This document shows positions 34,501-59,006 of a stretch of DNA of 64,000 bases, one piece after another. Each line of letters begins with the position of its first letter. The first letter of the stretch is position 1. Origin of the DNA: Pseudogymnoascus verrucosus. Its lineage: Eukaryota. Under the pieces are notes generated by a model. That model worked only from the letters and a program-made list of their open reading frames with translations. It was not told the DNA's origin and ran no database searches. The position numbers and the translations under genes were made by a program. The stretch lies in the NCBI GenBank assembly GCA_001662655.1, contig KV460234.1; one strand, written 5' to 3'.

Positions 34501-37500
34501 TCAGAGATTGCCTATCGAATTATCCTCCATCAGCGTCTTGACTTCCGGACACTTTTTACAATTCTTATGAGCCTTGGCCTGCTCCTGATAGAGTTGTCTT
34601 GCAGACTTGGCACTCCCATCTTTGATACTTCTTTTGGCACCGTGCTGCAACAGCATTCTCACAGCGTCAATGATCTCTAGAGAGATTGCGATGTGCAATG
34701 GTGTTCTTCCATCTGTCGTATTTTTGACATTGACATTGGCTTTCTTTTCGAGAAGAAGACGCAAGATTTCTAGCTGATCGTGGTTTGTCGTTGCTGTCCA
34801 AGACCCCATCGCCAATTGAAGCGGGGTGAGACCAGCTCCGTTTTCGCCATCCACAGGCGCATTCTTTTCCAAGAGCATACCAACTGCCCAAGGATCCTTT
34901 CGTCGCACTGCAAGATGTAGGGGCCCATTCATTGTTCCAGGCGGCGAAACATTAATGTCTGTACTGTAGTTTGGTGCCAGAAGAAGAGCTAAAGCATCTC
35001 TTCTATGTTTCGGCAATGGCTCATTTCCACCATAGAGGATCTGCAATAGCGGGACATCTCCCATTGCATCTTTGATATTTGGGTCCGCACCTGCCGCAAG
35101 GAGTATGTAAATGAGATTTGAATATCCACTCCACGCTTCATGCTCAATCGCATACTGAAGTGGAGTCCGTCTGGATACCTTGTTCTTTGCGTTGACATCA
35201 ACACCATAGTTGATGAGCTCACGGACGCATTTTACATGCCTATCACTAGCTCCTCTTACCGCATTGAAAATGGGTTCCCAACGTGGTTCTCCTTTCTTAC
35301 CAGGGTTACAGCCAGATTTAAGAAGCAGACGGACAGCAGATACACTACCTTCCTTTGTATATTGACCTAAGAAATTGAGTGTCTTGTCTTGCCATGGCAA
35401 GAAGACACCGGCACTGCTAAAGCGTTTTGCTGTTCGAGATGACATAACAGATGTTGGGGCAGATGAAGCCGCATCATCCCAAATCTTTTTCATGTAAATA
35501 CTAGCATTCACTGGTTTGATTTTCTCCTTTGCCATGGGCTTGTGAATGAGGTTGTCAAGATTTCCCGCGGTAAGCGGTAGAGAAACCTCAGGGCCCATCC
35601 TTTTCATGTAAATATTGGTATTCACTGGTTTGATTTTCTCCTTTACCTTGGGCTTGTGACTGAGGTCATCAAGGTTTCCCGCGGTAAGCGGGAGAGAAAC
35701 CTCAGGGCTCATCCTAGTAGCTGTTGGCTGTGGCTCCTTCTTGTTTATTGACGGCCCTTGTAAGACGATTGGGCTATTTTGTGGAGACGATGAAGGCGCA
35801 CGCATGTTGCTGAGCCATTTCTTTATGCCATTTTCTTCGAGAGGTATGGATTTTGGTTGGTACTTCGGGCTCTCACCTTTGTCGGGTTCGGGGGGGTTGG
35901 AAGCCCTTTGAATCTTTAAGAGCTTCCCCACCCACAGAGGGCTAAGACGAAAGGATAATAATTCTTCCTTAATCCTCATAAAGGTATCCGGTACGAGATT
36001 TTCATAGTCGTCCTGTAGAGATTCGTAGCTAGTGCTCCGCCGTAATCGATCATTATCCACCGAGGACATATTCTGCAGTAGAGCAATAGAAATATGATTT
36101 AAATTATCATAGCTTCTTCTCCGACGGATGCGGGTTTTGAGAATGTAAGATGGCGAAGTGTGGATGTCATCAGAATTTGTCCATATGAGTTGAGCAAACG
36201 GCGTAAGCTGTATGTGATTCTGTATAGGAGCCTCAGTAGGTAGCAAAGAGAGGGTTGAATCATCGCATTGGATTGGTAAACCCTTATTCTCTTCTACAAT
36301 AGGCGGAAACCATACGACCATCGCAAGATCCTCGTTGTCCTGCACAGGAGCTGCAGTGGCTTTCTGAGGGATGTTTAAAGCATTGGTTTGGGTTGGCAAA
36401 TCCCCATTATCTTCCACGACTGGCGCAAGATCACTGGTATGCTGCACTGGAGCTGTAGTGGCTTGCTGAAGGACATTCAAAGCATCGGGTTGGATTGGTA
36501 TATCCCTATTCTCTTCCACGATCGACACAATCTCTATGCTGTCCTTCACAGGCGCTGTAATGACGTTCTGAGGGAGAATTGAAGGCTCAGATTCGAACGT
36601 AATATCCTTGTCTTTTTCCAGAACTGGCGCCGGATTATACGTACATGGTTCAACTGTGATAATGAGGGGAAGCTCCTCGTCTGGCGTTTCTGGAAAAGCA
36701 CCAGGAAGTAACTGTGTATCATACTCAATTGAAGCCTGTTGCGGATAGTTGACGTACGTATACGGTGATGGTACAGCGTACTCGAAATTTGGCTTTGAGG
36801 CCTGGCTTATGTTTTTTTCTACTTCCTCTGCCTCGATCACTATCTTAGAGTCTTGGAGGGTATATTCGTCTGCTTTCCTAGCAGGTTGTAATAAGGGCGA
36901 CAAATGACTAGGTTCCATGACCTCTTTATTTTGTACCGGCATTGGAAGATCGGGTCTAATCGTGTTGTCCATGTCTTCATCTGTATCCGACATACTTTCG
37001 GATTCAGATTCTGTTTCCTTGCAACATCTGCCACACCAGATTCCACCATCAGCTTCACCAATATCTTCAAAAAGATCGACTGCGGTACGACGGTTGATGG
37101 GATCTTTACTGATCATCTCTTTTATCCATTGGAGTGGAGTGTTATCCGAAAGTCCCGGCATGGGTTGCAAGACTCGAAACCAGCTGATAGCAGCATCTAA
37201 GTTGTGGAAGACGAAAGGGTTTGCGGTTCCGTTTCTATGGAAATGGTCTTCCAAATTCTTCAGGGTTTTGCCTCGGAGTACCGTTGTCATTTCAAGAAAT
37301 ACAACGCCAAGCGACCATATGTCATTGGAGGACCGTCTAGGAGCCCCTGAATTGACTTCTGGGCTTTGATACCGAGGTGTAACGGAGGTGATATTTCCTT
37401 TTGTGACGCTATTGGAAAACTCAGTCCCTGACCAATCCAGCGCGGTACCAAAGTCTGCGATGTATATGTGCTGATTGTGAAGCAGAATATTCTCTGGCTT

Positions 37501-38323
37501 GATATCGTTGTGGCGAATCTGGCTGTCTTTGAGGTATCTGACAGCATTTGTGAGGCAGCCATAATAAGTCCTAAAGACAGACTTGTCACACTCCGGTAAT
37601 GGTTGTTGGAGATATTTCTTCAAATTACAGTCTGCAACAGGTGTTATGAGTAGGGCGACATAGTTCAAGTCAGTATAGCTTCCTTTGACCGCAACTAAAT
37701 GATCGTGGGAAAGCTTTCGGAGAGTATGAAGTTCCTTTTCGAATCGTTTGAAGACTTCTCGTCCATTGCCTTTCTTTATTCGTCTCATTCTTTTGCGAGC
37801 GTAAATGATGCCAGTGAGTTTACTCTGGACCTTTTCGACGGTTCTACATACCAGATTAGCCTACTTGATGTTTCGTTTTGCTATGAACTAACCCAGAACC
37901 ACCTTTACCGATCTTCTCGATGTTAGACTTGAAGAAAGAATTGCCATCTTTGACAGTGCAATGCCCTCCTTTCTCCAGGTCGTATGCAGTGCTCAATACA
38001 TAGTGTTGGAACTGGCAGAATTTGCTGAACATCTCCGGAGACTGCAGATCGCGAGGTAGGCTGGTTTTGGTTTCGTAAGGTAGGGAGATATCTGTATGGC
38101 CTAAACTTATGAAAGCATCCATCTCTTTGACGGCGTGAATCATGGAGAGAAGAGCATATGTTCTCGGTCTTCGAGCCCATTGTTCTTTTTTCAAGTCATA
38201 ATAGAGAATGTCGGATATCACATCAAAGGCCTGATCCAAGATTGGTTGAAGCTCGCCGGAATCTGCTACTTCCGGTGTACAAAGAGAGTTCAAGGAGCTG
38301 AGCGCTGTCTGATGAAAGTCCAT
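34501..38323 (-). CDS. Ser/Thr protein kinase with a long repetitive linker and C-terminal ankyrin repeats
   Basis: Exon 38323-37893, intron, exon 37843-34501. IGKGGSGTV, YARK, HNDIKPEN, DFG, YQSPE, DIWSLG. Several ankyrin repeats (RTPLQYA, GPLHLA, TPLQLA, RTPLHIA). Confidence 0.9.
35487..35714 (-). repeat. 117-bp (39-aa) tandem duplication in the kinase linker
   Basis: RMxPEVSLPLTAGNLDxLxHKPxxKEKIKPVNxxIYMK occurs twice. Confidence 0.9.
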
Positions 38324-39239
38324 ATTCGGGTCTTGGTATAAGTTGTCGCAGCGATACTGGGCCAAATTTTTGTCTCCAACAGTACACTGCTTGGACGGTT
38401 TCGGCGAAAATGGAGAGACGGGGTTAGGTATGCTTCTGCGAATAAATTCATGATTCTATGGAAACAAGGCAGAAAAAAAGAAAACAGTCTATATTGATTA
38501 TGTTACAATAAAAGGAGGGGTAGGAGGCGAGGCTGTGAGGTTGTGAGGCTGTGAAGCTGTGATGCATGAAGGATTGTGTGGGTGGATAGTATGAATGCGT
38601 CCCTCTTCGCCATATCGCTAATCATTGGACGATCAAGGACAACACATCATACATGCATGACTTCGCATCAGCCTATCTAATCGCCCATCCAATCTAAGGC
38701 CAAGTACGAGATTAATTGAGGCTGGCGAAGGCGCATGCCTATTCCGAGATGTATTCTCTAATTCTCTGTGGTTCAGAAAGCATATACCTGTGATGATGAG
38801 TTGATAGGGCGAAATCATCACCATCGGTCGGGGGTTTGAAATGCTCAACCATCAATACATAAGGGTATGAACGCGCAAAATATGCCGGACTTTTGTTATC
38901 GCTGTCGATTTCTATATCGATCGCGAATTGTTGGTGTTTTCTATTGTTGCACTCGCCGCGGATGCATTTAGGCAGTTGGTCTTCTTTTGTGGATGTGATC
39001 CACGTGCTTGCATCGCGTTGCATTGGCGTACTTCGGTTGGTGAACAATATTGTAAGCGTCTTCATCTTACCCTCATCTCTGTTACATTTTACGCAGAGTA
39101 AAATGCTATATATTTTTTTAGGAAAGAATGCATGTTACATCAACTCTGCTAGCAATTATTTGACATCTGAGATCTTATCTTGGTTTGGATCTCGACTTTC
39201 TGTCTCCCACTTTTCATCTTCCGTTGGGACCTTACCATC

Positions 39240-41087
39240 ATGAGCGGTTTCGACGTCGCAGCAGGTGTAGTTGGCGTCGTTTCGTTAAGCGTGACCATCT
39301 TTCAAGGCTGCATCCAGGGATTTGTGCTCCTTTCTACAGCGCAGAACTTTGGTCGAGATGCGGATATTGTTCGTTGCATGATTGAATGGGAACAGTACCG
39401 ATTGTGTGAGTGGGCAGAAAAGGTAGGACTGGAGACGAAGCCAAATCGGAAAATCAACTGGAGCCTTGTTTCCCAGCATCTCCACCAGTTGAAGGCAATC
39501 CTTACGGACGTGAACAAAATTAAGAAGGACTATGAACTTCGTATTGAGGTTACAGATGACGATCTCAAACTGGAGGACATTGCAGCAACGAGAAAAGGAC
39601 TTCAGGGGAGACTGGCTATGTTGAAACCCAAACTTCAGAACCAGACCGCTCAGAGATTACATAAGAGCAGCACGCCATGGAAGAGACTCCGATGGGCGGC
39701 ATTCGACAAGGAGCGACTTCAAATACTCATCCAGGACGTTAAATATTTTAACGATCGTCTGTACGATTTGCTAGAGAACTCGGATCGAGAGTTCTTCAAA
39801 CAGGCACTAGAGGCACTATTGAGAAATGTAATTTCTCAGACCGAAAGTTCCAGTGACTTAGATAGTATCAAAATGCTTCTCAGTCCCGACATATCGAAAG
39901 AAGGGTTGGAGAGTGCTGTTTCTGCTGCTGCCACCTTGAAACAACGACGTTTAGCCCTTGACTTTACCGAATATGACACGAATAGGACGTCTCGATCTAA
40001 TATCGCTTCGACGATGTCGCACAGGCCTTACCCTTCCCGGGGAAGAATTCCAATCAACAATTCCAGGGGTCCTCGCAAACTCCATCTTGCTTCTTTATCC
40101 GGGTTTTCCCCACCTTCTGCGGAAAAGAGACGAGAACTCGCAGTATACGAGGGTCAAAGGGTTCTCCTTGAATGGAAGACAATCAAAAAAGCTGACGAGT
40201 CGAAATTAAAGCACCGCGTGGAAGCTTTGGCAACATTGCTTGGGAACATTACTCATCCCTCGTTCCATTCCTTGAAGTGCAAAGGTTCGTTGAAGGTTTC
40301 TAGCGGAGAGTTCGCCTACATATTCGAGGCGCCACCTCTTCAATCAGTGGATTTCTGCTCTTTACTTCAGCTTCTGCGCATGGAATGCCGACCAAGCTTA
40401 AGCGATCGTGTCTCTCTCGGAGCCGCACTTGCTGAAACAGTTCTACAACTTCACACATCCGGTTGGCTGCACAAAGGTATCCGATCTGATAATGTGATCT
40501 TTTGCCGAGAGAAAGATCATAATTGGAAAGCTGATAACTTATGTCCTGTCTACCTCGGGGGCTACGAATATGCACGCGCGGATAACCCTTTGGATATCAC
40601 AGAAGCGCCATCATCACAAAAAGAAACAGATATATACCGCCATCCAGAACTTACCGGCGGTTCCCACAATTCATACAAGAAGCAGTACGATTTATATGCT
40701 CTCGGTTGCGTGCTTTTAGAGATTGGACTTTGGTGCTCTTTGCAGAATATTTTGCTGCTTGCTCTGCGGCGGAAAACTGAAGATTTTAGAGTTCGGCATG
40801 GTCTACAGCTTGAATTTGGTGGACAGGTAGAGGTCGCTGAGCTCAGCGAGAAAAGGAGGATGCTAGTCACCGACATTCGTGACGGGGCCATCATCAAAGA
40901 ATTGGAGTTTATGGCAGGGAAGAAATACGCGTCAGTGGTCATGGCTTGTCTGACGGCTGGCGATGAGGTGCAATCCAACAATGAAAAGGAAGAGGAGGGT
41001 GACTCAGGTGAAGAGGAGGGTGATTTTGCGACACTGTTGGATCTTCAAGAATGGGTGGTGATGGAGCTAAAAAGCTCCATCGTTTAG
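39240..41087 (+). CDS. HeLo (prion-inhibition) domain fused to a degenerate kinase-like domain
   Basis: N-terminal hydrophobic helix, FQGCIQGF, EQYRLCEWAEKVGL and RLRWAAFDKE...FNDRL are HeLo-type. C-terminal LHTSGWLHKGIRSDN, LGGYEYAR, IYRHPE, YDLYALGCVLLEIGLW are kinase-like. Confidence 0.88.
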   Translation: MSGFDVAAGVVGVVSLSVTIFQGCIQGFVLLSTAQNFGRDADIVRCMIEWEQYRLCEWAEKVGLETKPNRKINWSLVSQHLHQLKAILTDVNKIKKDYELRIEVTDDDLKLEDIAATRKGLQGRLAMLKPKLQNQTAQRLHKSSTPWKRLRWAAFDKERLQILIQDVKYFNDRLYDLLENSDREFFKQALEALLRNVISQTESSSDLDSIKMLLSPDISKEGLESAVSAAATLKQRRLALDFTEYDTNRTSRSNIASTMSHRPYPSRGRIPINNSRGPRKLHLASLSGFSPPSAEKRRELAVYEGQRVLLEWKTIKKADESKLKHRVEALATLLGNITHPSFHSLKCKGSLKVSSGEFAYIFEAPPLQSVDFCSLLQLLRMECRPSLSDRVSLGAALAETVLQLHTSGWLHKGIRSDNVIFCREKDHNWKADNLCPVYLGGYEYARADNPLDITEAPSSQKETDIYRHPELTGGSHNSYKKQYDLYALGCVLLEIGLWCSLQNILLLALRRKTEDFRVRHGLQLEFGGQVEVAELSEKRRMLVTDIRDGAIIKELEFMAGKKYASVVMACLTAGDEVQSNNEKEEEGDSGEEEGDFATLLDLQEWVVMELKSSIV

Positions 41088-41583
41088 GAAATCTTGACAC
41101 CACTTGAAGATTAGTCTCAGATCTAGCTTAAACACAGAGCCAATCATTTTATCTCGTACATGTTCCCAGAAAGAGATCCGAAAAATATATAGATTGGAAA
41201 TCCTGTCGCGGAGAGCTTCTGTCCAGGAAACAAAATCCAGGGATTCCCCGCAATCTTACAGAAAGTGGGGGAGAACGAACCTGAGCCTAACAAGGTAGTA
41301 CAGTTGCGCGAGTTTGTACCCCGCCTTCGTCGGGTCCCCATATACCAATAGAGTCAAGCTCTCCCCGCACACTTACCCCAAATCGCCCTGTGGCCCAAAC
41401 ATCTCGGAATTACTCCGACATTGCCTGGCCTACTATATCTAGGCGTCCCATAAATCCGAGCGTTACCGCTGTTATCCAGAAATGTACACATTTTTCGTTA
41501 TTTGCCAACCAGTGCGACACAACGGCTATTGAGCTATCCCCGCAAGCAAATATTGACAACAAATAGCGATAGAAAGAGCGCAG

Positions 41584-44500
41584 ATGGAGGGTAATTTACA
41601 TGGTGCCAACAGCGTGGAGACGGAGGCACGGGTGGATGTACCTAATACAAACCAACAACCTCGCCGTAAATCACGCGCGGATAACTCATCTGCAAAGGGA
41701 TTCAAACGTGCATACAAAGCTTGCGTGCGTTGTCGGATGAGCAAGGCTAAATGCGAACTTCCACAAACTGGGGATAGCTCTCTGCCATTGGGATCTTGCA
41801 GTAAGATCTCTTCCGCGAAACCTTCCCCCGGCTACTGCATGCTTTTGGATTTCACTAACCTACTCTATCCAAGTGAAATGCCAACGGGAGAGAAGAAAGT
41901 GCGAGTTCACGGTTACTAGATCCTCAAAAAAACGTCAAAAGCCTTCCAATGTCCAGCCGGATAGCCTCGACTCTGAACGGCCCCATCATGGTTAGTTATA
42001 TCCCTAAATAACTGTAATAGATGTTTAGGATAGCATTAATACCCCTTGCTAGTTCATCCCCCGTCTACTGACCACTCTAGAACTGCCGAAAATGTCACAA
42101 ATTCCGACGACGACGACAACGACGACGACAATCAAGCGCATGGAGGAGACTCCCAGTCTTCATTTGACTACAACTCACACCAATCACATAACAGACAAGA
42201 GTTCCAGGGGTCTCCTAGAAGTAACTGGTTAAATGCGAGTTCTATAATAGAACCACACAAATCAGCAGACGCTGATGGCTCGGATTCGGAACTGTCGAGT
42301 ACATCCAAACGCCCAAGACGCCAAAGTATGATACAAAGATCTGTATTGAGTAATCGAGTCATGCGAACAGTCGTCTCTTCTTCAAACGACGCCCTAGGTC
42401 TTCTTTTCGAAGCAGTTGAGCAAGAGCAAAACGGTTCATTCAGCGGCGGCTTACAAGCTCTTGAAACTAATACTAACGGATCTCATGCTTCCCAACATCC
42501 AGCTCAGCATATAAGTCCCCATTCAGCCATGTCAACTGTTTCAAAACCGGGACCAATTCTCCAAAACGAGCTCTCATCTGCAACCCCTGAAATATTAAGG
42601 CTCTGGAACCGATGTCGCTTTGTGAAACAAGGGTGGTTTACTGCAAGGGAAGCTATTACATATATTGACTTGTAGGTGATTATTTATTGTTCATGTCATA
42701 TGAGAAAATCTTTCTCCTTTACATGGTGCTGAATATACTAGGTTCTTAAAAAACTGTGCTCCTCATACGCCAATCTTAACGGATTACTATTTTCATCATT
42801 CAAACCATCATGCTCTTGTTACAGAAGAACCCCTTCTATGTTGTACAATACTCATGATCTCTTCTCGCATCCATGTTTTACCGGGCATGGGCGGTATCTC
42901 CCGGGCCCATTTTATTCATGGGCGGCTCTGGCAGCACCTCGAGCATCTTATCTCCCGTGTGATCTTTGGCCAGGAAAAGATTTCGACTGCAAAGACACGA
43001 ACACTTGGTACTATAGAGAGTCTATTGCTCATGACGGAATGGCACCCTCGAGCCCTTCACTTCCCCCCAGAAAGCGATGGATGGGATTTTGATCTTCTGG
43101 CGAACCCTGATATGCCCGAGGGAACAGGCATGGCGGATGCTGAAGATTCCTCGGCACTGTATCGGTGGCGAGAAGAGGTTTTTGAGCCTGCTAAACGGTC
43201 CGATCGCATGTCATGGATGTTAGTGGGCGCTGCAAACTCTCTAGCACACGAGCTAGGGATTTTTAATGACTGGGATGCGTCCGCTGGTAAGGAAGGTAGT
43301 TCGACTCCCGTAGATGAGATGCGAAGATTACGCGCGCGAATGCTTCTATACGTCTATATTAACCAGCTCGCCGCGCGGCTAGGGTGCACGACGTTGGTAC
43401 CAGAAAATGCTTGTCATACCGTTATGGATAAATCGTTGCTGCCAGCGATGACAATACCAGATCAGCGCTGGTATTCTTTTATGACTTGCTGGATAGAAAT
43501 AACCGCATTGATGGAGACGGTCACGGATATGTTTTTTCCTTCTGCAGCCTTTACACGTCAGCTGCTCTTAAGCGGTCGGTATAAAGGACTTGTGAATCAT
43601 TTCCAACCCTTGCTATCACAGTGGAATGAGAAATCTAAAAAACTAGAAGGTGAGGTTGATTTCTGTGGTTTTCAAATGTTGTAGAGAAATATTATTATTC
43701 TCATATCCATCACTGGCATATACAATACATCAAGCTCACATTTTCTGGCCTTGCAGGAATCTCAACGCCATTTAGAGATATCCTCTTTCTCGAATACCAC
43801 TATATCCGAATGTATGTCAATTCTCTCTCGATTCAAGCCATCGTCGAGCGTACAGTCTCTCAAAGCAACAACTCCGCCACCGCTGAGACAGCACCCTATG
43901 AAAGGAGTGCATCCCAACTGCCTTCCGACGATCTTCTTGTTACATCTATCTCTGCGAGCGATTACAATCTTATCTCAGAAGTCATTGACGCCAGTGTTCA
44001 AATTCTTAAAAAGTCTATTTCACTTTCGCAGTTGGGTCAGCTTATTCACGCTCCAATGCGCACGTATGTGCGTATAGTATCTGCCTCAATTTTTCTTCTC
44101 AAAGCCATTTCGCTCGGCGCGCGCAACACCGATATCCAGACTTCTCTAGACGTCTTAGATGAATTCATCCAAGCCCTTCAGATATCCACCACCGATGAAG
44201 TGCATCTGGGCTCCCGTTACGCCACTCTCCTTGAACGACATGTTCGCCGCTTCAGGCGGAACTTCGTGGGGCTATTCAAGGCTAGCAAGGCAGGACTACA
44301 TCGGCCATCGACGTTAAATGTCCCGCCATATGCGCAGATGACCTCTTCATCGCTAAACCACTTAAGTCCAAGGCAGAATGACCACACGGCTAATTCAGAT
44401 GGGCCCTTAAATGGCGAGCAAGGGCTGGGAGAGATGGCGGGGCAAGCCAGAACGTTGGATTTTGATGGCATGCAATTCACAGGTGATGGTGGGCTGAACG

Positions 44501-44634
44501 TTGCCGGCTACTTGGGGGATGATTGGCTTGCACAGCCGTTTGACCCCAATATTGCGCCGTTTGGCGTAGGAGGCTCGCAATCCATGGGTGGGATAGATTT
44601 GGGTTCTCTAGATTTTTTGTGGAATTTGCTTTGA
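41584..44634 (+). CDS. Zn(II)2Cys6 transcription factor (Aro80-like type)
   Basis: AYKACVRCRMSKAKC...C..CQREKKKC, split by an intron. Fungal TF middle region (FVKQGWFTAREA, LLLMTEWHPRA, RSDRMSWM) and acidic tail. Confidence 0.88.
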
Positions 44635-55494: not shown

Positions 55495-58400
55495 TCACAT
55501 CGCCCTTCCCTTCCCCTTCCCCCCTCCATCTAGAGCTGGAAACTCCTCGCTCACTTCTGCAGCAATAGCCCGGCTCTCTTCCTCCGCCAAACTGAGCTGA
55601 AGCGCATAATCCAAATCCTCCATGGCAATCTCGGCCTCCTTCTGCTTTCTGCGGCGAGTCTTCGACGCTTGGCTAGTAGACGGCGACGTTGATGCCGAGC
55701 GCCTGCTCTTCTTTGTCTTCACCACAAAAGGGACGTCGTAGCTCCTGCTCCCACTGCCCGGAGGTGAAGATGCCTCGCTCTCGAGCAGCGACAGCCGGAT
55801 CGCCTCTTCCACCTCCCTCTCCAGCTCCATCTCGCTCTTCATATTCGGCGACGACGCGTTGTATCCTGCGACACTCGGCGCGGGTGAGCCAAACGTACTA
55901 CTAACGGCGCTCTGGCTCGGCTCAGGTGTTCCTTGACCACGATCACCGCTGGCACTAGTGAGCCTTCGCTCTTCCTCTTGCATAAACGCCTCCTGTGACA
56001 TCAGCTCTGCATATCGTAGCGCCTCTTCCTCGCTCAACCCCGCGAGACCAACGCCAAAGCGGCCCTGCAGATGCAGCTGCTCCTTTTCCTGCGCGATAGC
56101 CTCACGCTTGAGTTCCTGCTGCTCGTTGACGATATAGTCCATCAGCGCGCCGCGGCCGGTATTTGTGTACCTATCGGTCGCGCCATTGTGGCCGCGCTCG
56201 CTTGACCGCCGTAGACGGCGTTTCTTGCTCGCGAGGGAATCAGCGCCGTTGGAACTGTACGCCCAGTACCGCAGGTGCGTTCCGAGCGTCACCATGCCCC
56301 GCAGAGCTGTGGGGTCGGGGTCCAGTGCCAAGGCACCGGCAGCGTAGAGGTTGATCCCCACGCCCTGGACTGAGGCCTCAGCCTGGACTAGACGACGGCG
56401 CGCACGCGACGAGAAGCGTGAGTTGAGAGTGCGCAGAGGTTCTGTGATGGATGCAAGTGGGTCCCATGCCTGTACGAGGCCGTCGTTGCCGCCGTGGACG
56501 AGGTATAGCGCCGATAGGGCCAGACAGGAGATTTGAGGAGAGTCGGTTTGAATAGTGCGAAGAGGCTGGAGGGTGTTTGTAATTGACGCGTTGCGAGATT
56601 GCGGGCCTCGCATATCCCAGATATAAACAGCCCCAGTCTTGGTACCAACAGTGAGAAAGCGGCCACGATGGCCTGGGATATTGTGCAATGAGTTTCCTTC
56701 ACTATGTTCTGGAGTCGCAAAGATCGCAGATGCAGTATTGCCGCCATTCATGGTGAGAATCGGGTCCTCTGGCACCCAGAGAATTGCAAACGTCGACATA
56801 TCAACCGCGTTCGCCGTAAACTCGATAGTTTGCGCTCCGTCCCACGCCAATGCAGTGGTTCTCCACTCTTCTACGAACGTAGATGCACCATTCCGTTTAA
56901 CAGGGCTCATTGATATCGCCTGTTCAGCCGCTTTAACCTTCAAACTAGCCGGTTTTCCACCACCAAAGAGCGAAGCGACGGTAGTCGCCTTCTCCTGAAC
57001 CGGCGGGGTTTTCGGAATTGGGAAGCGATCGAGAGAAGCCTGTTCTGCTCTCATACGGGTGAACCGTGTAATGTGTGCAGGCTCTGACTCAGGGGCACCA
57101 CACTGGATGACGACTGCGCACTCTCCTGCACCGCGTCCATCGTCGCCCGCAAAATCGACCTGAAGCCTACGGCGCATGTCCCAGCCATTGCAGACTTTAC
57201 GGAAGATGGCAGGGCGGAAAGCAAAAAATGTTTCGAGCTCTCGGTTCTCCGCTAGCAGTTGCTTCTTGGTAAGACCAGAGGAGTGGGGCGAGGATCGGGG
57301 AGAGTAGCTCCCGTCGAACTCGGCGTCTTGGTATGGGTCTTCACGCGCGACACGACGGGTGGGTTCAGCGAGCTTCCAAGCGACGCTACGGCCAGTTTCC
57401 CAGGCCATCGTTGCAAGGCTTTCTTCGTCCAACTTTGCGTTTTTCTCAATCGGAGCTCGGTGGATACTTTGGGTCAAGTAAAATACTTCACCTAGAGCAT
57501 TCAAAGCCATTGCCCAAATACGCTCTGAATCCTTTCGCTTCGCGTTGTATGAGTCGTCCACGCTGATGGCTATTATGGGAACACCCGGACTAATGGCCCA
57601 ACGAGCTGTAATCTCCCCCTTGGCCAACCGATGCCCATCTAGGTTGTCAACGCCAAATGAATACGTCGTGATGATTCCGCATGAAGAACCCGTCATGATT
57701 CCCACAAGGCCATCCGTCATCGAAGGCACAGCAATCGACTTCGCAATCCATACGGAAGATACGGACTCGAAACGGCTCGGCACTTTGGGAACCTCAGGCG
57801 GATGAACTTCGTAATCCGCGGTGCGAGCCAGGAACCTGCCACGCATCTCTTCCGACGAACGGAAGTAGGCCTGCCCCCCTGGAAAACCTTCGCCGCACAC
57901 CATGCCAAACGGCTGGCTAACATCCATGACATTCGGCGCACCGATCACTGATCCGTCTCCAAGACCATAGGGCTGGTCGCCCGGGAATAGATCAGCAAAC
58001 TGAGGCAGCGCCTGTGGGTCGGACAAGCCCCAAGTGTCAACTTTTCCAATATTCGGATCGCTGGTGCAAGCCGTACCCGTCTCATCGCTTCCATGAATGA
58101 ATCTCGGAGACTTCCTGCCATTATCAAAAACGGCATGGATATGGTTCACAGTCGTAAACAGCTGCGAGTTATACGTCACAGCTGCATTCGCATTGTTCGC
58201 CGCGCTATTCGTGCGAGACGACGCTCCATGACCTTTCGCGATCTGCTGCGGCTTACCGCGAGCAAGAGAGCGCAGAAGCCTCGTCCGAAGAATATACTCG
58301 CTGCGCCATGATGCAAGGGCCGTCAGCCGCGCGAAAAACCGTTGCTCGGCACGTTGTCGGTCGCGAGTTTCTTGATCAGAGCTGCGGCGGTTGTTGCGCG

Positions 58401-59006
58401 CGGCGTAGCCTTCATCTGTGGCATCTTGTCCAGGGAAGAATCGCGAAAAAGCGATGCGCCAGGCGTGCGGCGTGGTAACAAGATTATAGAACCTTCGGGA
58501 CACAAGTGATACCGTTGACAGAGATGTTGCGGGTAAATGCGACAATATGTGAGTCAGAACCTCTGCTTGGTATTAGCTTGCGCTCGTAATTTGCGGGCGA
58601 ATTTGGGCTCACCATTAGGGAATTGCTCCAGTTGGACCCCATCATTGCTGCTTGTTCTGCCCTTGGTTACTTTGAACCCAGGACCGCTTCTCCGATTCTT
58701 TGGAGATTCGGGTCCTAGATCAATTTCACCTCCTGCGGTCGCATTGAATGATGGGTGGGGCAGGTTATCGCCCTCCAGAACCCCGTTCAGTGGCAATTCG
58801 CCCACCACGCCGCCCTCTGCGCCATCGACGGATTGCAGAGGGACGATCGCGGAAGCACCGACAACTGACTGCGGTTGCTCATTATACGAGCTTGCCGCGA
58901 GGGCAGCGATGTCTGGATCTGAAAAGCCATGTTGAGAAGATTGGGTAAAACGTTCCGGAATTGTATGAGTAATCGTGTTTGAGATATCGGTAGGCTCAGA
59001 TTGCAT
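55495..59006 (-). CDS. pof10: F-box/WD40 protein with C-terminal UIMs (Pof10-like)
   Basis: Spliced F-box LEQFPNEVLTHILSHLP, WD-type segments (VYIWD, VQAWD), UIM-like motifs (EEAIRLSLLE, LDYALQLSLAE). Confidence 0.8.

Follow-up and report, generated by a model that had tools for sequence, protein, structure and literature searches.

We describe a pair of divergent genes from Pseudogymnoascus verrucosus, found in a stretch of 64,000 nucleotides of contig KV460234.1 (assembly GCA_001662655.1) that was analysed as a whole and is called the window below. One gene encodes a protein kinase followed by ankyrin repeats and the other a HeLo domain followed by a pseudokinase; they lie head-to-head, with start codons 916 bp apart. 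The first kinase is live and the second dead, and the pairing is deeply conserved in other fungi, where the two proteins have diverged together in two clades (clade I, which includes the present pair, and clade II). The two genes very probably form a functional unit of some kind. A more specific reading, on which our belief and our doubt are evenly balanced, is that of a module of two genes whose active kinase would control an MLKL-like executioner by phosphorylating a Ser/Thr of its loop, thus releasing the HeLo domain onto the membrane. An earlier sequence-only reading of this DNA had noted the two divergent genes and their spacer, and both are where it placed them.

The features of the pair are the following, with the left gene on the minus strand and the right gene on the plus strand.

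38324..39239, spacer: intergenic region of 916 bp between the divergent start codons, containing (GAGGCTGT)x4 at 38529-38562
34501..38323, minus strand: kinase-ankyrin gene, 1257 aa (exon 1 38323-37893; intron 37892-37844; exon 2 37843-34504; stop 34503-34501)
37018..37920, minus strand: active protein kinase domain (Pfam Pkinase, E 1.7e-32)
37792-37803, 37489-37512, 37447-37455 and 37357-37365, minus strand: kinase motifs YARK, HNDIKPEN, DFG and SPE, respectively, read directly in the sequence
37021..37035, minus strand: conserved Cys motif CGRCC, residues 414-418 of protein P0123, directly C-terminal to the kinase domain
35296..37017, minus strand: low-complexity linker of about 550 residues from kinase to ankyrin repeats, with two tandem repeats
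36336-36559, minus strand: the older linker repeat, 102 nt x2.2 with 75% matches, encoding proline/valine-rich repeated peptides
35483-35715, minus strand: linker repeat of 114 nt (38 aa) x2, from the tandem-repeat search
34573..35295, minus strand: C-terminal ankyrin-repeat domain (Pfam Ank_2, E 4.4e-30; Ank, E 2.5e-26)
39240..41087, plus strand: HeLo-pseudokinase gene, 615 aa, one exon (stop TAG 41085-41087)
39267..39869, plus strand: HeLo domain, residues 10-210 (Pfam PF14479, E 3.6e-38), preceded by a hydrophobic N-terminal helix
39972..40070, plus strand: predicted disordered linker between HeLo and pseudokinase, residues 245-277 (predicted local confidence, pLDDT, <50 in the AlphaFold2 [AF2] model)
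40092..41084, plus strand: pseudokinase domain, residues ~285-615, with LEWK, HKGIRSDN (40470-40493), GYE (40560-40568) and YRHPE
40599..40604, plus strand: Thr454-Glu455 in the equivalent of the activation loop, candidate phospho-acceptor from alignment conservation

The presence of a kinase gene beside the HeLo-pseudokinase gene raises the question of whether the arrangement is particular to this genome. We examined adjacency along three routes: tables of protein searches, with their locus tags and contigs; metagenome contigs; and a control with other open reading frames (ORFs) of the window. In the protein-search tables, both homologues carry consecutive locus tags in ten species (Pycnora 003939/003938, Mollisiaceae 002606/002605, Hymenoscyphus albidus 6774/6773, Drepanopeziza 4516/4517, Xylographa trunciseda 4684/4683, Pleopsidium 7499/7500, Alectoria 2956/2957, Pyrenodesmia 1601/1602, Gyalolechia 6170/6171, and Flavoplaca 4012/4013). 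Two such tables, matched by eye, gave at least 26 pairs on the same contig, as judged from the identical size of the clusters' longest contig, among 120 of 233 HeLo-pseudokinase clusters versus 120 of 342 kinase-ankyrin clusters; because of this coverage, the unmatched rows are uninformative on absence. Seven of these contigs are no longer than 12.2 kb. The family spans, at 35-50% identity, three classes of Pezizomycotina (Leotiomycetes, Lecanoromycetes, and Candelariomycetes). The sequence-only reading had taken the two genes for a coupled unit, a view that separate locations in other genomes would have undermined; since pairing is widely conserved in other fungi, the view stands.

The metagenome scan, made with the family alignment, identified 55 loci, including the near-duplicates L008/L010, L016/L018, L037/L038, and L052/L053. 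We searched their flanks by tblastn, custom hidden Markov models (HMMs), and Pfam; tblastn at E 1e-5 missed the diverged partner kinases of clade II, which relaxed tblastn, the HMMs, and Pfam recovered. Where at least 3 kb were available on both sides, a Pkinase gene lies within 4.5 kb in 12 of 16 loci and is the immediate neighbour in 11. The corresponding counts are 10 of 14 loci with one flank of at least 3 kb and 1 of 25 short loci. The orientation is mostly head-to-head, but convergent in L006 and L038 and tandem in L010 and L015. The head-to-head spacers of clade I are short, with 916 bp here and ~0.4-1.1 kb in L026, L027, and L014. None of 10 further window ORFs around the pair recurs in the 55 loci, save for a generic similarity of short-chain dehydrogenases, and Pfam finds no other Pkinase gene among the 53 other window ORFs of at least 120 aa. 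Together, these two results indicate that general synteny has decayed and that solely the kinase neighbour was retained.

The partner kinases vary in their accessory domains. Ankyrin repeats are present in 13 distinct metagenome partners, two of which add a ZZ finger: these clade-II proteins (L010:12521-16624 and L011:497-4823) end in the ZZ-type zinc finger after the ankyrin repeats. Some other clade-II partners (L006, L038, L039) have a Sel1 repeat ahead of the ankyrin repeats. One locus (L039:3-5414) has two adjoining, divergent kinase-ankyrin genes upstream of a single HeLo-pseudokinase gene, which suggests a local duplication of the partner kinase.

We inferred a maximum likelihood tree of 79 pseudokinase domains, of which 46 come from the loci and 33 are the rows of alignment A1; we excluded three near-duplicates and six loci that cover too little of the domain. 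The tree splits in two, into 21 and 58 rows, with support of 99 on each side in the Shimodaira-Hasegawa-like approximate likelihood ratio test (SH-aLRT). The smaller clade contains all 12 loci with a clade-II partner and the larger one all 34 rows with a clade-I partner. We assigned the partners to clades by their HMM scores and motifs (for L048, placed in clade II, the motif was not checked). The clade-I kinase HMM scores ~20 bits for clade-II partners versus 150-320 bits for clade I. Clade-II partners have the catalytic loop H-G/S/C-D-V-K-S-E-N and the DFG region DFG-F/C-S, and keep HxD..N and DFG. The pairwise distances of the two proteins are correlated (r 0.967 over 27 matched pairs), and none of 2000 permutations reached as high a value. 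The co-phylogeny that the sequence-only reading had put forward as a check thus gave two matching clades, and the tree points to two ancient HeLo-pseudokinase clades, each with its own kinase clade, as co-inheritance predicts.

The left gene starts with an ATG at 38323 and has a single 49-nt GT..AG intron. Exon 1 terminates within the codons of the glycine-rich loop, GKGGSG, whose final Gly codon is interrupted by the intron. The spliced 1257-aa product is identical (100%) to the annotated P. verrucosus protein P0123. Its kinase has the glycine-rich loop, the beta3 Lys, HxD..K..N, DFG, and an APE-like motif; it had been described as retaining every catalytic motif and ending in ankyrin repeats, and this observation is confirmed because all these motifs are present in the sequence, with matches to Pfam Pkinase and Ank_2. 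In an alignment of 95 homologues, the Asp of HxD and that of DFG are invariant (95/95 each) and the Asn of the loop is present in 94/95. Immediately before the catalytic Asp, 62 of them have K, 24 have R, and 6 have N, so that most homologues are non-RD kinases (i.e., lack the Arg-Asp pair). The closest solved relatives of the kinase domain, among the best 60 of 222 matches, are PknB-like bacterial kinases, DAPK1/2, CDK1, and PDK1 (E 3e-15 to 2e-13).

Outside the kinase, the first 140 residues of this protein match no Pfam family, and Atlas scores (<=0.81) are uninformative there. The Cys motif that follows the kinase has the family consensus G-x-F-C-G-x-C-C, with G415, C417, and C418 near-invariant among the 33 homologues of alignment A2; it could be a site of lipidation or metal binding. 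The ankyrin domain accounts for 32 of the 46 invariant columns of A2, and repeat analysis found no high-identity internal repeats within it. It therefore looks like a fixed binding surface and not a diversifying sensor, and a fixed ligand would fit it better than the role of a rapidly evolving sensor as in fungal NOD-like receptors (NLRs). This goes against the NLR-style sensing that had been proposed for these repeats. The linker is variable: the contig of a related strain (run X4) skips 35547-35660 and lacks exactly one copy of the 114-nt repeat, so the number of copies differs among strains. This contig spans the whole pair, with 60 substitutions, 7 gap positions, and the one repeat copy as differences. 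Three further sequencing runs (X1-X3, possibly DNA) gave short contigs of low depth inside both coding regions, none spanning the intron or the spacer.

An annotated 615-aa protein from another Pseudogymnoascus strain shares 98% identity with the right protein. The sequence-only reading described the latter as a HeLo domain fused to a kinase fold without either catalytic Asp, and both parts of the description are borne out. The N-terminus matches Pfam HeLo (PF14479) over nearly its full length (profile positions 3-202 of 205, E 3.6e-38), and clade-II relatives do likewise (E 1.6e-41, 8.4e-41, and 2.8e-33). A search of Protein Data Bank (PDB) sequences with the family profile retrieved the HeLo structures of HET-s (2wvo/2wvq/2wvn, E 5.9e-13 to 3e-12) over positions 4-179. 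The hydrophobic N-terminus is kept in the family, with A8, S15, G23, C24, and F28 at 90% or more in the 33-homologue alignment. Widespread as the architecture is (275 clusters at 50% identity, E 1e-30 or better), a pathway built on it would be common and no curiosity. A search among longer proteins found no HeLo-pseudokinase-ankyrin fusion, with a single weak match (P0243, E 4.7e-11, HeLo+DUF7580, 1137 aa), and counts as weak evidence.

The C-terminal half of this protein resembles kinases below the Pfam threshold (Pkinase, 3.1e-5; DUF7580, 2.9e-5). Both catalytic Asp are gone, as HKGIRSDN replaces HRD..N and GYE replaces DFG, and the beta3 Lys is kept (LEWK). We analysed the conservation of the domain in 33 aligned homologues (A1) and then in 166 pseudokinase domains. 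The position of the DFG Asp is Gly in all 163 filled cells of the larger set, within a motif G-Y/F-E, and most members have G/S/C/A instead of the catalytic Asp. The few that retain HKD without the DFG Asp are clade-II pseudokinases (L010, L011, L017) and P0096 of clade I; the two aspartates were hence lost stepwise. The family keeps the beta3 Lys/Arg, the Asn of the catalytic loop, and the Asp of subdomain IX across the 166 domains, and neither alignment shows a glycine-rich loop.

The AF2 model of the protein (pLDDT 78.7, predicted TM score 0.80) consists of a helical N-terminal domain, a disordered linker, and a kinase fold. Its residues 275-615 superpose on RAF (Z 20.6), MerTK, CTR1, RIPK2, RIPK1, and IRAK1, with Z ~20. 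A structure search independent of Foldseek, with the same residues, gave BRAF (Z 20.5), the rat MLKL pseudokinase (18.3, rank 18), RIPK1 (18.3), and RIPK3 (17.8); MLKL is not among the top 50 of Foldseek. The top rows are all kinases of the tyrosine kinase-like or tyrosine kinase type within ~2 Z, so that MLKL does not stand out by its fold.

The sequence of the pseudokinase family provides additional information on a possible switch. Position 454, between the degenerate DFG and the APE-like YRHP, holds Ser/Thr in nearly all filled cells (142 of 143 for clade I, 21/21 for clade II), and Glu comes next in 138 sequences of clade I and 17 of clade II. In the AF2 model it ends the sole low-confidence loop of the kinase fold (447-453). 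Such conservation makes Ser/Thr454-Glu455 a candidate phosphorylation site. In the search of all PDB sequences with the family profile, the best matches to its kinase part were PERK (E 1.5e-4), mouse MLKL (4btf, 4.7e-4; domain 0.0041), then further MLKL entries and IRAK4. At E <=0.01, 31 of the 34 sequences retrieved are kinases and 12 are MLKL, with PERK outscoring MLKL. The profile alignment to mouse MLKL places the family G-G-Y-E on A-G-F-E and Thr454 on the Thr of 'SRTAK' in the activation loop, where the alignment is uncertain. GFE is known as the motif that stands for DFG in MLKL, and the 'SRTAK' segment of mouse MLKL carries the target sites of RIPK3.

These observations suggest how the module might operate. 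The two genes would encode an MLKL-like executioner and its dedicated kinase regulator. In the executioner, a membrane-attack domain of the HET-S type would be restrained by the catalytically dead kinase fold. The regulator would be a Ser/Thr kinase, active and of the non-RD type, and its conserved ankyrin domain would bind a fixed ligand, be it a cellular cue or the executioner itself. Upon a trigger, the kinase would phosphorylate the near-invariant Ser/Thr-Glu of the activation loop, the pseudokinase would change conformation, and the HeLo domain would be freed to insert its N-terminal helix in the membrane, with regulated cell death or ion leakage as a result. The identity of the domains, the contrast of a live with a dead kinase, and the deep conservation and joint divergence of the pair are shown here, whereas we infer that the proteins touch, that Thr454 is the phospho-site, that control is activating and not restraining, and that death results. 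On a wider scale, and with rather more doubt than belief, we suggest an ancient module co-inherited in Pezizomycotina, of which at least two clades would have diverged together from a time before Leotiomycetes, Lecanoromycetes, and Candelariomycetes separated. The kinase would phosphorylate the GYE/GFE-type pseudokinase loop and fire a HeLo pore in a necroptosis-like process without NLRs or amyloids; the module may share its ancestry with MLKL, in which case kinase control of the MLKL type would be no animal invention.

Several points weigh against this proposal. Some concern the pairing: no kinase is near the pseudokinase gene at 4 of the 16 fully evaluable loci (L004, L033, L036, L054), which implies that the partner is dispensable or located elsewhere; one of them, L004, is a close relative (41-50% identity) and yet lacks a nearby kinase. 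In L029 a PfkB gene stands between the pseudokinase and kinase genes, and the partners in L015, L020, L027, and L029 are without ankyrin repeats. The distance correlation and the labels on the tree are no proof of interaction, because shared descent yields the same pattern. Others concern the likeness to necroptosis. In sequence, the pseudokinase matches MLKL weakly (domain E 0.0041). The left kinase, presented by the sequence-only reading as RIPK-like, shows no specific likeness to this family: no RIPK is among the best 60 of 222 solved matches, though RIPKs may rank lower, and Pfam matches at E <=0.01 in the kinase-ankyrin protein include no RHIM family. Finally, the apparently vertical inheritance, moderate conservation, and the lack of hypervariable repeats are unlike typical fungal immune receptors and leave room for a non-immune role.

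Other accounts start from the same facts. The kinase-ankyrin protein might hold the executioner off, by inhibitory phosphorylation or sequestration, such that loss or inhibition of the kinase, e.g., by a competitor's effector, would unleash HeLo in a manner akin to a poison and its antidote. Linkage that stays tight despite changes in orientation is seen in poison/antidote and allorecognition pairs, the conserved ankyrin domain is what one expects of a surface that binds a fixed partner, and the rates of change of the two proteins are matched. Nevertheless, we hold this to be unlikely: under strict restraint, the relatives without a nearby kinase (L004, L033, L036, L054) would not survive, unless they carry the kinase elsewhere in the genome. 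It is quite unlikely that the pair governs a non-lethal process, such as a membrane or ion flux in stress or development (e.g., of lichen-forming or cold-soil fungi), with HeLo as a membrane-targeting or channel part. Vertical inheritance across three classes at 35-50% identity with no hypervariability seen would suit such a role, as would the lack of an NLR or amyloid partner (in Pfam; no search aimed at amyloid motifs was made). However, the N-terminal hydrophobic helix is conserved, and all HeLo domains characterised so far are death effectors, according to a recent review (HET-S; PMC12881547).

The proteins could also be mere co-regulated neighbours, sharing a promoter region or a chromatin domain without acting on each other. 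The short head-to-head spacer that is usual in clade I is indeed typical of bidirectional promoters, but adjacency outlasts changes of orientation, persisting where the genes are convergent (L006, L038) or in tandem (L010, L015) and have no common promoter, and this weakens the explanation. Nothing else around the pair is conserved, and the match of an active kinase to a neighbouring dead kinase fold, whose loop has a near-invariant Ser/Thr, is functionally specific. We thus regard simple co-regulation as very unlikely. Lastly, we give hardly any credence to an allorecognition (het) locus, where incompatible combinations of alleles kill the fused cells of different strains. Known fungal het systems often comprise two linked genes including a death effector, as the same review has it (PMC12881547). 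Yet the one related strain carries no divergent haplotype (60 substitutions, 7 gap positions, one 114-nt copy), and orthologues are conserved across classes instead of being highly polymorphic.

The rest of the window contains other types of genes. Neither protein of the pair nor any of the 53 other ORFs has a NACHT or NB-ARC domain in Pfam. Their absence, claimed in the sequence-only reading, thus holds; the claimed absence of an amyloid motif rests on Pfam scans of the pair, which show no C-terminal prion-forming motif on the effector, no search aimed at amyloid motifs having been made. Positions 1-31300 hold an ORF for a UstYa-like mycotoxin-biosynthesis protein (1222-1824), a P450, an FAD/BBE oxidase, a short-chain dehydrogenase, a multicopper oxidase, a DUF6914 protein, and an APH-type phosphotransferase; this region may be a secondary-metabolite cluster, possibly for a ribosomally synthesised and post-translationally modified peptide. 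Downstream of the HeLo-pseudokinase gene, a multi-exon set of ORFs (41557-44631) has a Cys-rich N-terminus that resembles a Zn2Cys6 regulator by eye and no Pfam match at E 0.001. L004 has a Zn_clus/Fungal_trans gene that is also downstream, and tblastn shows no similarity between it and the ORFs at 41557-44631. Further on, a minus-strand ORF of 1025 aa (55498-58572) has an N-terminal F-box and a weak match to a beta-propeller.

The proposed module is best compared with the vertebrate RIPK3-MLKL system. In both, the executioner joins an N-terminal helical membrane-attack domain to a C-terminal pseudokinase, and the switch is presumably a separate active kinase. The fungal G-Y/F-E aligns with the GFE of mouse MLKL, a Ser/Thr is conserved in the aligned activation loop, and the modelled fold matches the rat MLKL pseudokinase (Z 18.3). 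In contrast, the fungal partner is not a RIPK as judged from the best 60 of 222 matches, has no Pfam RHIM, and carries ankyrin repeats, and the N-terminal domain of its executioner is a Pfam HeLo. The fungal genes are, moreover, adjacent and co-inherited. If the reading is true, the logic by which one kinase fires a pseudokinase in necroptosis (RIPK3 to MLKL) reaches a second kingdom, and the pair, compact with its two genes and provided with a predicted phospho-site, would suit reconstitution in yeast. The left protein itself follows a known order: RIPK4/ANKK1 and DAPK1 have a kinase domain, a linker, and then C-terminal ankyrin repeats. DAPK1/2 are also among its best solved matches (E ~8e-15), but this indicates no specific kinship because their score ties with those of PknB-like kinases, CDK1, and PDK1.

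Among fungal systems, HET-S/NWD2 of Podospora anserina and HELLP/PNT1 likewise encode a HeLo or HeLo-like death effector beside the gene of its activator. Their effectors are fired by amyloid templating from an NLR, whereas the present pair is without NACHT, NB-ARC, or a Pfam prion-forming domain, and its control would pass through a kinase and a pseudokinase. The identical two-domain architecture occurs in the fusions of HeLo-like domains with kinases or pseudokinases in fungi and in the plant MLKLs (AtMLKL1-3, Pm13), for which we found no dedicated neighbouring kinase described in the portions of the literature consulted. The existence of the HeLo(-like) plus kinase/pseudokinase architecture, reminiscent of MLKL, is noted in the consulted part of the 2025 review (PMC12881547). 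A 2022 survey of NLR effector domains covers MLKL-like N-termini and, as far as its consulted part goes, not kinase neighbours (PMC9815663). The sequence-only reading had surmised that the coupled pair was undescribed; in agreement with this, the full-text literature searched yielded neither an account of kinase-ankyrin and HeLo-pseudokinase genes as a pair nor a mention of 'DUF7580', a coverage that leaves aside subscription journals and supplements. Amyloid templating from NLRs is the known trigger of fungal HeLo death effectors, and on the control of the many HeLo-pseudokinases the reviews consulted note the fusion only. The linked active kinase would give a concrete and testable answer to this question. 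The fungal pairs of gasdermin and protease (HET-Q1/HET-Q2) similarly place a pore-forming executioner beside its activating enzyme, as described in the 2025 review (PMC12881547), with the difference that activation is by proteolysis and not phosphorylation, and that the protein families are unrelated. In the literature searched, then, the fusion is described and the paired kinase gene is not, and we place the pair among these fungal clusters of an executioner plus its activator, here most likely with control by a kinase.

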